DNA from: a bacterium
Lineage (GTDB): Bacteria; Bdellovibrionota_C; UBA2361; RFPC01
Direction of reading: 5' to 3'
Length of the DNA stretch: 49,489 nt
Assembly: GCA_022763385.1 (NCBI GenBank)
Contig: JALEGQ010000033.1
Location: 1 to 49,489 of the forward strand
Shown: in pieces, positions 29,900 through 34,240 of the stretch
How the letters are laid out: every line of letters begins with the position of its first letter
Numbering within the stretch: the stretch's first letter is position 1
Position numbers and translations under genes: made by a program
Notes under the pieces: generated by a model
What the model saw: only the letters and a program-made list of their open reading frames with translations
Database searches by the model: none
What the model was told of the DNA's origin: nothing

Positions 29900-30988
29900 A
29901 TGGCAATAGAAGCAGTTGGCACCGCAGAAACCCTCTCGAAGATGAGAGCCCTTCTCTCTCACGTAGTGCCAGATGCAGAGCTTCAGATCAAAGCAGAACT
30001 CGTTGCTGAGATTAATGCGCTGAAGAAAGAACGAAACGCCCTTATTCTTGGGCACAACTATATGGAACCGGCGCTCTTTCATACCGTACCGGATCTCGTT
30101 GGCGATTCGCTCGGACTTGCTCGCGAGGCAGCTCGTACCCACTACGATACCATTATCTTCTGCGGCGTTCGTTTTATGGCGGAGACCGCAAAGATTTTAA
30201 GTCCGGACAAAACGGTACTCCTTCCCGCCAAGGAAGCAGGATGTTCCCTTGCGGCCAGTATCACCGCAGATGACGTTCGAGCGCTGAAGGAGCGTTTTCC
30301 CGGTGTTCCCGTTGTGGTGTATGTAAACACCTATGCAGAGGTAAAAGCTGAGGCGGATTACTGTTGTACCTCGAGTAACGCGGTTGAGATCATTCAATCC
30401 CTCAAATCTGACCGAGTGCTCTTCCTTCCCGATGAGTACCTCGCCAAGAATGTCGCGGAAGAGACCGGAAAAACAATTATCGTCGCAGGAAAAGAGGACT
30501 CTGGAGCGCTGACGGTGAAAGACGCCGGTGGCGCTCCCCTTCCAGCACACGATAATGGAGAGAGTGATCTGATCGGATGGCACGGTCGGTGTGAAGTCCA
30601 TGAGCAGTTCACCGTTGAAGATATCACCAACGCACGTGCCCAGTTCCCCGGCATTGAGGTGATCACCCATCCCGAGAGCTCTCCGGAGGTGGTTGCCGCT
30701 GCGGACTACTCCGGAAGCACCACGCGGATGGTACAATACGTCAAGGATTCCCCAAAGAAGCACTTTCTGATCCTCACCGAGTGCAGCATGGGAGATAATA
30801 TTATCGCGGAAAACCCAGAAAAAGAGATCGCCCGGATCTGCTCCGTTCGATGCCCACACATGAATGAGATCACCCTGGAAGATCTTCTCCTCTCGCTACG
30901 GGAAAACGTCACTGAAATCGAGCTGGAGGAGTCTCTCCGAAAGCGCGCTTTGACCTCAGTAGAACGAATGATCGCAGTTGGTCGGTAA
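29900..30988 (+). CDS. nadA: Quinolinate synthase
   Basis: ILGHNY, GDSL, FCGVRFMAE, AGCSLA, YVNT, CTSSNA, CEVH, HPE, CPHM. Confidence 0.97.
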   Translation: MAIEAVGTAETLSKMRALLSHVVPDAELQIKAELVAEINALKKERNALILGHNYMEPALFHTVPDLVGDSLGLAREAARTHYDTIIFCGVRFMAETAKILSPDKTVLLPAKEAGCSLAASITADDVRALKERFPGVPVVVYVNTYAEVKAEADYCCTSSNAVEIIQSLKSDRVLFLPDEYLAKNVAEETGKTIIVAGKEDSGALTVKDAGGAPLPAHDNGESDLIGWHGRCEVHEQFTVEDITNARAQFPGIEVITHPESSPEVVAAADYSGSTTRMVQYVKDSPKKHFLILTECSMGDNIIAENPEKEIARICSVRCPHMNEITLEDLLLSLRENVTEIELEESLRKRALTSVERMIAVGR

Positions 30989-31073
30989 TGCTGCTGCTGA
31001 GGAGTTCAACAGCTCATTTGCTCAATATGGCGGTCTTCAGAAATCAGGAGCTAAGTAATCAGGAAGTACATTG

Positions 31074-31205
31074 TTTTCGAGGGAGTGCTCTGTGTCTTCC
31101 GTGCTCAAACAGGTCCTCGCGCGACTTCTTACGTAGCGGGCCTTGCACTATTTCTGGCGCGCTGCGGATACTGCGCGCGGAAAACACAGAGCACTCCCTC
31201 GAAAA
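31074..31205 (-). repeat. Hairpin element copy 1 (28-bp terminal inverted repeat, two 23-nt conserved boxes, 30-nt variable loop)
   Basis: Arms 31074-31101 and 31178-31205 pair with 1 mismatch. Boxes 31102-31124 and 31155-31177 are exact reverse complements of the boxes in copy 2. Confidence 0.9.
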
Positions 31206-31315
31206 GTACGTTGGTAATTCGAAGCTCTCTTCTCTCGCTATCCAACAAGGAGCGGCAAGCACCTAAGACACTCCCCGGGAAAGAATGTTGCCTTACAGAT
31301 ACCTCTGCTCTTCTT

Positions 31316-31449
31316 CTTGCGGGAGGAAAGGTTTTTCCTTCCACGCGCAGTATCCGCAGCGCGCCAAGGTCATTTCAGCCATCACCAATGCCAGTACTCG
31401 CGCGAGGACCTGTTTGAGCATGGAAGGGAAAACCTTTTTTTCCCACAAG
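31316..31449 (+). repeat. Hairpin element copy 2 (different outer stem, same two 23-nt boxes, 31-nt variable loop)
   Basis: Arms 31316-31343 and 31421-31449. Box A CGCGCAGTATCCGCAGCGCGCCA at 31344-31366; box B TCGCGCGAGGACCTGTTTGAGCA at 31398-31420. Confidence 0.9.
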
Positions 31450-31567
31450 CCAATAATCACTCACACCGCCTGCCCTTTGGAAACACGGCATCACCAAGAA
31501 TTCATCGGATCAGGGACGACCTTCATCCTCCCTCCAATCGCTGCGTATTGTTGAAGGACGCTATAAC

Positions 31568-34240
31568 TCAGTGAGCCGGTAACTGCTCCGGCTGGACGAT
31601 ATCGAGTACCAGCGGTCGTGCGCCGTCTTCTTCTTCCCCGAGTGAAACGGTGAGGTGAGACTGATCTGGGACCTCATCCCGGATTAATGCACGAGCGATC
31701 TCTGTTTCGAGCTTTCTCTGGAGATACCGCTTCAGCGGCCGTGCCCCGAATACCGGATCGAATCCCTCTTTCGCCATATACTCAATCACCGCATCGGACA
31801 CAGAGATCGTAATACCTCTCTCAGCAAGCCTTTTTCCGATATCAACGATCAAGAGCTGGACGATCTGCTCTATCTCTTCAAGACGGAGTGGTGAGAAGAG
31901 TACCGTCTCATCTACTCGGTTAAGAAACTCAGGTCGAAAGTGGCCTCGCAACTCCTGCTCGACCGCACTCCGGGCGGTTTCAGTGATATCGCCCTTCTCA
32001 TCAAGACCTTCGAGGAGGTGGTGAGAGCCGATATTCGAGGTCATGATGATGACCGTATTCTTGAAGTCGACCGTACGCCCCTGTGAATCGGTGATCCGGC
32101 CGTCGTCTAACACCTGAAGCAAGATGTTAAACACATCGTTATGGGCCTTTTCGATCTCATCAAAGAGCACGACTGAGTACGGTCGACGTCGAACGGCCTC
32201 TGTTAGCTGCCCTCCCTCTTCATATCCGACATATCCTGGAGGGGCTCCGATCAACCGAGAAACGGAGAACTTCTCCATATACTCGGACATATCGATACGG
32301 ACAATATTGTCTTCAGAATCAAAAAGCGTCTCTGCGAGGGTCTTTGCGAGCTCGGTCTTTCCTACTCCCGTGGGGCCAAGAAAGATAAACGAACCAATCG
32401 GGCGATTCGGATCCTTGATTCCCGCTCTCGCACGGATCACCGCATCCGTCACGAGCTGTACCGCCTCGTCCTGTCCGATCACCCGGTGGTGAAGGATATC
32501 TCCAAGCTTCAACAACTTCTCCTTCTCGCCCTCAACAAGCTTCGTCAACGGAATTCCAGTCCACTTCGCAATAATCTCGGCGATCTCCTGTTCCGTAACT
32601 TCTTCACGGAGCAACTTCTCTGGGGTGCTTCCGGCAGACTCAGAGGCCCCCTCATCACGCTTCTGGGTGAGCACCTGCTCGGCAGCCTTTAACTTCTTCT
32701 CGAGCTCAGGAAGAGTGCCGTGCTTGAGTTCTGCAGCTCGATTCAGATCGTACTCCCGCTCTGCCTGTTCAATAGCGAGCCGAGTCTGTTCGATCTGTTC
32801 TCGGAGGTGCTGAAGTTGGTCGATACTCCCCTTCTCCAGCTCCCACTGGGTTCGCATGGTGGTCTCTCGCTCCCGAAGATCCGAGAGGTCTTTCCGAAGC
32901 AAGGCGAGACGATCTTGACTCGAGGAATCCTTCTCTTTCTTGAGCGCAGCTTCTTCAATCTCGAGCTGCATGATTCGTCGCGTGACCTCATCGAGCTCAG
33001 CTGGCATCGAGTCGATCTCTGTCCGGATCATGGCACACGCCTCATCCATAAGGTCAATCGCCTTGTCCGGGAGAAATCGATCGGAAATATACCGGTGAGA
33101 GAGGTTCGCCGCCGCAACGAGTGCGTTATCTTGGATCGTCACCCCGTGGTGAACTTCAAACCGCTCCTTAATCCCCCGCAAGATCGAGATCGTATCGTCT
33201 ACGTTTGGCTGCTCGACCATCACTGGCTGAAAACGACGTTCAAGTGCCTTGTCCTTCTCGAGATACTGCCGATACTCGTCAAGAGTAGTTGCCCCAATGC
33301 AGTGGAGCTCTCCCCGAGCCAACATCGGCTTCAAAAGATTCCCGGCATCCATAGCTCCATCGGTTTTACCAGCGCCGACGATAGTGTGGATCTCATCAAT
33401 AAAGAGAATAATCTCCCCTTCCGACTGCTTCACCTCCTGGAGCACTGCCTTGAGCCGTTCTTCGAACTCTCCGCGGAACTTGGCTCCTGCGATCAGTGCT
33501 CCCATATCGAGAGAGAATACTGTTTTCTCTTTCAATCCTTCCGGCACGTCTCCCCGGACGATTCGCTGCGCCAAACCTTCCACGATCGCGGTCTTTCCCA
33601 CTCCCGGTTCTCCGATTAGGACCGGATTATTCTTGGTCTTTCGTGAGAGAATCCTGATGGTTCTGCGAATCTCCGAGTCACGACCGATCACGGGATCCAT
33701 TCGCCCAGAACGAGCTTCTTCTACGAGGTCTTTCCCGTACTTCTGAAGCGCCTCGTAGGTCCCTTCTGGGTTTGCACTCGTGACCCGTTGGTTCCCACGG
33801 ATCTCCGAGAGGGTGGAAAAGAAATCCTCTCGGGAGATTCCTCGCTCTGAAAAAAGCGCCGTGAGAGCGGAACTTCCCTCATCAAAGAAGGCCAGCCCTA
33901 AGTGCTCCACCGAGATATAGTCATCCCCCAACCGCTTCGCTTCCTCTTCGGCTGCCACACACAGTTTTCCCAGCTGCGGTGTGAGAAAAACCTTTCCTGA
34001 TTCAATCCCTGGTCCACTTACCGATGGCTTACGAGAAAGAATATTCTCCACCGCGACACCGAGTTCCGCGGTATCAACATCCATCTTTTCAAATATGCGG
34101 GGCAGGACGCCATCACCTTGTTGTAAGAGCGCGAAGAAAAGGTGCTCGACATCGACCTGCTGGTGCCCAAGCGAAACCGCTTTCTTCTGAGCGGCAGCAA
34201 ACCCCTCCTGAGACTTTTCGGTAAATCTGTTCATATCCAT
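31568..34240 (-). CDS. clpB: Chaperone ClpB
   Basis: Two AAA modules ([16 protein letters not shown]), coiled-coil M domain, [21 protein letters not shown]. Confidence 0.98.

Follow-up and report, generated by a model that had tools for sequence, protein, structure and literature searches.

The window analysed here, a stretch of 49,489 nt (contig JALEGQ010000033.1 of assembly GCA_022763385.1), carries two long hairpins, e1 and e2, which lie in opposite orientation in the 579-nt spacer between the convergent genes nadA and clpB (Table 1). We find that e1 and e2 belong as ordinary members to a family of structured hairpins that is so far uncatalogued. The core of these hairpins, roughly 35 nt in size, is absent from Rfam, is near-invariant across the gut-rich class Coriobacteriia, whose positive genomes have between one and about thirty copies each, and recurs in a second phylum. 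With a probability that we put at about one half, the family represents an RNA hairpin of gene ends and intercistronic regions, similar to REP (repetitive extragenic palindromic) sequences, with a core recognised by a protein and with the additional ability to spread as DNA.

A reading of the window made from its letters only (hereafter the sequence-only reading) had described two opposed elements with identical 23-nt boxes, A and B, and unrelated loops of 30 and 31 nt, and all of these parts are present where it had placed them. Each box has two matches in the window, both without mismatches, compared with an expected number of 0.00 at up to three mismatches in 100 shuffles. The outer stems are likewise unrelated in sequence between e1 and e2 and yet each pairs with itself, as had been claimed; the stems were recovered as inverted repeats I2 (e1, 34 nt, 91% complementary) and I4 (e2, 23 nt, 87% complementary), and the change at the stem top, TTCCG/CGGAA versus TTCCA/TGGAA, proved to be a true compensated pair (alignment columns 16/96, GC in 14 sequences and AU in 1). 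The mutual pairing of the boxes, with bulges, was also borne out and involves the helices GC/GC, GCAG/CUGU, UCC/GGA and GCGC/GCGC. The predicted folds reach -75.1 kcal/mol for e1 (z -9.3 versus shuffled sequence) and -49.6 kcal/mol for e2 (z -5.4), and the opposite strands fold about equally well (z -10.0 and -4.3, respectively). In the source genome (G000; 3.07 Mb in 228 contigs, 86.5% complete) e1 and e2 are the sole copies, and the outer-stem arm of e1 has no second copy there beyond chance matches of 13–17 nt; outer-stem matches of this length (e.g. C15:20099-20115) fall within unrelated coding sequence. The two open reading frames (ORFs) that span the elements, of 110 and 92 aa, have no Pfam match. 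A coding role was also considered for a 25-codon open frame seen by eye in one subtype of a related genome (G061, see below), but length variants differing by 2 nt (104 vs 106 nt) would break that frame.

The family was recognised by a search for the two-box pattern, which returned four loci in the metagenome-assembled genome of Candidatus Aphodovivens avicola (G061; Coriobacteriia, Actinomycetota) and eight metagenome contigs that are strain variants of these four loci. A covariance model, R1, built from 15 sequences, matched 31 times in G061, with E <= 1.5e-5 for 28 of the matches, and twice in G000. At E <= 0.001 it was positive in 67 of 151 Coriobacteriia genomes, with 1–25 matches counted per positive genome among at most 26 scored candidates. 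In the class to which the window's organism belongs, it was positive in 6 of 124 genomes. The phylum-level search for the window's organism covered the same 124 genomes as the class search, so the organism's phylum is a small one that consists of a single class and is distinct from Actinomycetota. In an Actinomycetota-wide sample R1 was positive in 4 of 151 genomes, all four of them Coriobacteriia that were already positive. BLAST of 60 genomes of the same order found nothing similar to the elements, and matches to single boxes in these relatives lie in unrelated contexts where the partner box is absent. Phages, plasmids and viral contigs contained nothing similar either.

With regard to known families, Rfam 15 assigned no family to positions 30900-31650 of the window, the best matches being Guanidine-II (E 0.62, outside the elements) and mir-2068 (E 2.7). 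For 20 loci from 18 genomes it returned only a tRNA and sub-threshold look-alikes of miRNA hairpins. Likenesses to the K-turn, loop-E, hammerhead and hairpin ribozyme were judged by eye not to fit, and the ribozyme models of Rfam gave no match. A full-text literature search brought up no mention of a Coriobacteriia element of this type; the available passages of two motif surveys (PMC8040213 and PMC5737381) do not mention one either, and their supplementary motif lists might hold it. As a separate observation, the Guanidine-II (mini-ykkC) look-alike lies just past the clpB stop codon at 31508-31561 on the plus strand and scores 17.2 bits against a gathering score of 32; it is most likely due to chance.

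The anatomy of the family comprises three parts. The outer stem is usually 22–31 bp long and specific to its locus, and 1522 of 1668 stem positions in 73 copies form Watson-Crick pairs. Above it stands the near-invariant two-strand core with the consensus CGCGCAGU.UCCGCA / AGGA.CUGUYUGAGCACG, which with its fixed bulges reads CG-C-GC-GCAG-U(U/A)-UCC-GCA(G) ... (CG)A-GGA-(C)CUGU-YUGA-GC-A-CG on the boxA-to-boxB strand. The apex is free in both length and sequence and is itself a covarying hairpin in most members; several subtypes were distinguished, with a loop of the GAA type in type 1, one of the CAGUG type in types 2 and 3, and an extra hairpin in type 3. Entire matches, 13 stem pairs per side included, span 61–142 nt, the 61-nt minimal forms being found in G006, a genome from the same family as the window's organism. 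It follows from the family's anatomy that the loops of e1 and e2 are just the apices of two members, and that their near-equal length is a coincidence.

Covariation was examined in 34 distinct sequences from 29 genomes. Paired cells amounted to 98.5%, compared with 68.7% in shuffles, none of 500 shuffles being as high, although this alignment had been fitted to the model and is thereby biased towards structure. Slid-alignment controls gave 37–48% paired cells. Changes on both sides were seen in 21 of 28 pairs, and compensated changes occur family-wide, also inside the core helices (GC/GC to CC/GG, GCAG/CUGU to GCAC/GUGC and GCGC/GCGC to GCCC/GGGC). Together with the compensated substitutions between orthologs described below, these results corroborate the earlier proposal that the structure is constrained and that the pair is no simple duplication. 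A near-invariant core on stems that vary but are always compensated points to a specific molecular partner.

The copies have a characteristic placement relative to genes. We call a copy S-oriented with respect to a gene when the mRNA of that gene would bear the reverse complement of the boxA-to-boxB sense. In a crude ORF test, a long ORF ended 2–114 nt upstream of the S-oriented side in 40 of 74 distinct copies, mostly at 16–45 nt from the model boundary, or about 5–30 nt when counted from the base of the stem. With the copies read in the opposite orientation, such an ORF was present for 24 of the 74, at scattered distances. The S-upstream ORFs tested in G061 are real genes, all 20 having Pfam domains that reach the C-terminus, and they have no common function. 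Six of 10 further upstream ORFs have a Pfam match, while four of the five from the window's phylum have none. Downstream, 19 of 20 tested ORFs are real genes, often the operon partner of the upstream gene, and elements are found inside the gene pairs aroB>aroQ, smc>ftsY, prfA>prmC, argJ>argB, larB>larC, amt>P-II and moeA>mog as well as inside ABC permease>ATPase and Dus>radical SAM pairs. The elements are therefore located at gene ends and between cistrons, and are not confined to terminator positions. For genome annotation, the family accounts for long palindromes at gene ends that would otherwise be puzzling.

Close pairs of elements (less than 600 bp apart) had the (-,+) arrangement in 11 of 11 cases, one of them in G061 between convergent malic-enzyme and CmpB genes. 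The window pair conforms to this: e1 has its boxA-to-boxB sense on the minus strand, so the nadA mRNA would bear the reverse complement, and e2 has it on the plus strand, so the same holds for the clpB mRNA. One S-oriented copy per convergent gene thus yields the head-to-head pair between nadA and clpB. A separate observation on orientation comes from the one-contig genome G115 (contig C1), where six of seven listed copies below about 1.2 Mb are on the minus strand and seven of seven above about 1.46 Mb on the plus strand. The orientation flips with the chromosome arm, as gene orientation would, and the bias may be linked to replication or to transcription.

Many copies are old. Genome G279, from a second species, is 84–97% identical to G061 at matched loci, and the four elements found in 400 kb of G279 all have a G061 copy as their ortholog. 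In these ortholog pairs the core is nearly unchanged, whereas the stems and apical hairpins differ at roughly one quarter of their positions, almost all differences being compensated; the DegV locus alone shows at least five compensated changes. The strain variants display the same pattern on a small scale. Furthermore, the elements that follow Dus (before a radical-SAM gene) and DegV in G061 have counterparts after these genes in the distant genomes G107 and G185, and the stems at the DegV locus are still recognisably similar between G061 and the distant genomes. Copies that are orthologous, old and retained argue for a function.

The function we favour, at the even odds given above, is that of an RNA hairpin. 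A copy sits just past a stop codon, usually with box B nearest to the gene, and would be transcribed as part of the mRNA of the upstream gene, which would then bear the reverse complement of the boxA-to-boxB strand. The long stem might stop exonucleases, dampen read-through or provide a cleavage site for a double-strand RNase, as in REP-type 3'-end and intercistronic hairpins, and a conserved protein or RNA of the cell could dock at the invariant core. A role as RNA on the gene's strand is favoured both by the bias in orientation towards the upstream gene and by the location in operons, and the copies within operons are likely to shape the relative expression of the operon genes. Assembled RNA-library contigs from four of four runs (four studies) cover one copy and both of its neighbouring genes without a break, and cultured carriers with public RNA-seq data exist.

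Several observations weigh against an RNA hairpin of this kind. The protein partner of the core is putative. The orientation is not absolute, a few G061 copies (e.g. L084 and L094) being reversed, and the window copies lie beyond the typical distance from a gene, e1 at 85 nt from the nadA stop codon and e2 at about 125 nt from that of clpB. As judged against intrinsic terminators, the family shares the position after a stop codon, but many copies are intra-operonic and the U-tract is weak, with a mean of 2.7 U per 10 nt on the S side and 1.4 on the other side. The window copies have no U-tract in the gene sense; the right arm of e2 includes a run of seven T's, which is on the other strand. The RNA-library contigs run straight through the element and are strandless, without defined ends and open to inclusion of DNA. 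Finally, mismatches in 57 independent distal stems comprise 17 G-T, 16 A-C and 37 others. Selection at the RNA level on one strand would favour wobble pairs, and the lack of a wobble bias is as compatible with a DNA palindrome, or with both strands being used, as it is with RNA. The sequence-only reading had pointed to such G-U pairs on the boxA-to-boxB strand; this is correct for the window, where the three stem mismatches of e2 are all G-T on that strand and e1 has a single T-G mismatch (read by eye), but it does not extend to the family. An initial family-wide count of 51 versus 21 derived from the conserved proximal stem and from non-independent copies, and the bias vanished in the count of 17 versus 16.

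Among known systems, REPs and the bacterial interspersed mosaic elements (BIMEs) composed of them are the closest kind. Passages of PMC3733652 describe them as multi-copy extragenic hairpins located just past coding regions, between unidirectional and convergent genes and often head-to-head, with proposed roles in mRNA 3'-end stabilisation and termination. REPs have a length of 20–40 bp, with a conserved stem (8–9 bp or similar) that carries a small loop, and with a GTAG or CGTC tag that is unpaired. The present family is likewise multi-copy, follows genes at both co-directional and convergent ends, and forms head-to-head pairs. Its logic is inverted, however, since the stem (22–31 bp, in elements of 60–170 nt) is the non-conserved part and the bulged apical core the conserved one; stems differ among copies in G061, G000 and most other genomes. 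A (C/T)GTCCG motif adjoins the stem on the gene side in some G061 copies, but it is no general feature, and e1 and e2 lack it.

A further difference concerns the REP-associated tyrosine transposases (RAYTs). In G000 and G061 the RAYT-like genes score below the cut-off of NF047646 and are flanked by repeats of their own that are unrelated to the hairpins, so that a RAYT link of the family is not supported. In G000 the gene (contig C111, L150:1195-1869, minus strand) encodes a 224-aa protein that scores 57 bits against a cut-off of 80, and it is flanked by a 30-nt repeat of its own, AATTCGTCCCCGGGATGACTATCCCATTTT, which is unrelated to the boxes and present in at least four copies; this looks like a separate REP/RAYT-like system. 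The homologous gene in G061 (contig C5) is bracketed by a perfect 27-nt inverted repeat (L149:1345-1371 and 2223-2249), which differs both from the G000 repeat and from the hairpin family.

It is possible, if doubtful, that the family is a selfish mobile hairpin at the DNA level, similar to REPs or MITEs (miniature inverted-repeat transposable elements), whose core would be recognised on folded single-stranded DNA by a trans-acting recombinase or transposase and for which sites past stop codons would be either tolerated or targeted. In genome G221, five copies at unrelated loci have in common a sharp-ended unit of about 170 nt that includes the stems, and the distribution over two phyla (67/151 and 6/124 genomes) is patchy. 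The boxes of G000 have the G061 subtype (AGTATCC) and not that of G006, although G006 belongs to the same family of organisms as G000. The element is missing from the same-genus genomes G001-G003 and also from G005, and in G003 nadA and clpB are only about 57 nt apart. G061 and G280 have a common distal stem but different core subtypes at one locus, and the apex subtype also differs at orthologous loci with a shared distal stem (G061 vs G280; G061 vs G279). The absence of a wobble bias noted above points in the same direction, as does an association with Y1_Tnp (PF01797), which is found in 47 of 151 Coriobacteriia genomes: 33 of these 47 are element-positive, compared with 34 of the 104 without it, by a hand count whose statistics ignore relatedness. 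The G221 units, the differing subtypes and the patchy distribution are signs that the family has also spread as DNA, within genomes and between the two phyla.

Other observations speak against mobility as the whole explanation. The flanks of the five G221 copies show no target-site duplication and do not pair with each other. No enzyme gene adjoins any copy examined, the neighbours being housekeeping genes, and the four genomes that have the most copies among the matches listed (G179, G105, G115 and G143, with 19, 17, 16 and 12) have no Y1_Tnp match; together with the unrelated repeats around the RAYT-like genes, this leaves the earlier suggestion of a hairpin substrate for an HUH enzyme unsupported with respect to RAYT and Y1 enzymes. 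Orthologous copies have been stably kept over about 85% nucleotide identity and, at Dus and DegV, across genera, and the core is conserved between genera far more than in REP families. Nor was a clean empty site, with the same stem and a plain loop, found. Insertion into the loop of a pre-existing terminator was considered in this context at the malic-enzyme locus, where relatives G279, G281, G277 and G278 have plain hairpins of 10–14 bp and G276 has none, and none of these shares the stem of the G061 or the G280 element. As an observation on the same locus, a 1.1-kb segment of G061 contig C9 (L074) holds both elements of the pair and the convergent CmpB-like gene, and at this site G279 (L138) has about 53 nt with a plain 10-bp hairpin instead, the edge of the indel being at a gene end.

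MITEs such as ERIC and Correia are also small non-coding repeats that fold as RNA when co-transcribed, and the sharp-ended G221 copies resemble them. They differ from the present family in that no target-site duplication was seen (G221), no parent insertion sequence is known, and the arms are unique to each locus in most genomes, with no family-wide terminal inverted repeats; in G221 it is the hairpin arms that act as inverted repeats. The suggestion of an undescribed MITE or REP-type element made from the window is partly supported: the G221 units and the occurrence in two phyla speak for it, and the many copies that are old, orthologous and conserved speak against a purely selfish element. 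In two of the five G221 copies (L131 and L132), a second shared palindrome (CTCTGTGCCTCTGTG ... CACAGAGACACAGAG) lies about 60–130 nt past the box-B side; it could belong to a different repeat family or represent a terminator common to both copies.

The attC sites of integrons are imperfect hairpins that lie directly after an ORF and have two conserved box pairs, bulges at fixed places and a variable terminal structure whose length differs greatly. The family shares the plan of boxes, bulges and variable terminus as well as the post-ORF site. In contrast to attC, its copies are dispersed over contigs beside housekeeping genes with no cassette arrays seen, a long extra outer stem is present, and the sequences are much more strongly conserved; an R box of the GTTRRRY type was not seen, although the R box was not examined formally. 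Long irregular hairpins that contain an internal loop and lie between the cistrons of a single transcript are also known as RNase III or stabiliser signals, for instance the phage T7 R sites and the malE-malF REP. These are single-locus signals, whereas the present family is dispersed and keeps an invariant core across a class and two phyla.

The long perfect stems of the family are long enough for a double-strand RNase. A rather unlikely extension is that the core and proximal stem constitute a functional small RNA module, carried in 3' or intercistronic mRNA, released or displayed by cleavage of the stem, binding a conserved protein and moved between phyla, or else that they are the substrate of a hairpin-specific DNA mobilisation other than by RAYT. 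If true, such a module would be a bacterial analogue of small RNAs embedded in host transcripts.

We consider it improbable that the family is a conditional terminator or attenuator, in which a ligand- or protein-sensing module within a terminator hairpin would tune read-through to the next operon gene. Many copies do lie between co-directional operon genes, 5–150 nt before the next start codon, and the conserved bulges resemble the terminator-embedded aptamer named in PMC6478431. However, the neighbouring genes lack a common function, many copies, including both of the window, are at convergent ends with no downstream gene, the U-tracts are weak, and the 61-nt minimal forms leave no room for anti-terminator pairing. 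Hardly credible is the scaffold-plus-guide RNA put forward in the sequence-only reading, with the boxes as scaffold and the 30/31-nt loop programming a nuclease or recombinase: within the window alone the constant boxes and the unrelated loops of nearly equal length suggest it, but members span the whole range of 61–142 nt with a middle that is mostly a self-paired covarying hairpin, the loops have at most chance matches of 13–15 nt in the genome and in phages, plasmids and viral contigs, no enzyme gene adjoins the copies examined, and the nadA-clpB spacer has no promoter-like site.

Table 1. Positions in the window of the two hairpins, their parts and the neighbouring genes.
Feature	Positions	Strand	Evidence or remark
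Element e1, entire hairpin	31074-31205	- (boxA-to-boxB sense)	covariance model R1 92.2 bits, E 1.2e-17; inverted repeat I2; fold z
e1 outer stem arm by box B	31074-31101	.	pairs with 31178-31205; locus-specific sequence
e1 box B, TCGCGCGAGGACCTGTTTGAGCA	31102-31124	-	exact match
e1 variable apex, 30 nt	31125-31154	-	
e1 box A, CGCGCAGTATCCGCAGCGCGCCA	31155-31177	-	exact match
e1 outer stem arm by box A	31178-31205	.	inverted repeat I2
Element e2, entire hairpin	31322-31442	+ (boxA-to-boxB sense)	covariance model R1 86.0 bits, E 3.4e-16; inverted repeat I4; fold z
e2 box A, CGCGCAGTATCCGCAGCGCGCCA	31344-31366	+	exact match
e2 variable apex, 31 nt	31367-31397	+	
e2 box B, TCGCGCGAGGACCTGTTTGAGCA	31398-31420	+	exact match
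nadA (quinolinate synthase)	29900-30988	+	Pfam NadA, 370.6 bits
clpB	31568-34240	-	Pfam AAA_2, ClpB_D2-small, Clp_N

Apart from the two hairpins, the scan of the nadA-clpB spacer revealed no further terminator-like site. A 22-nt direct copy, 77% identical, of the right arm of e1 and its flank (31192-31213) is located between the two elements at 31269-31290, 77 nt downstream of the e1 arm; it may be what is left of a partial duplication, or of a third hairpin arm that has decayed.

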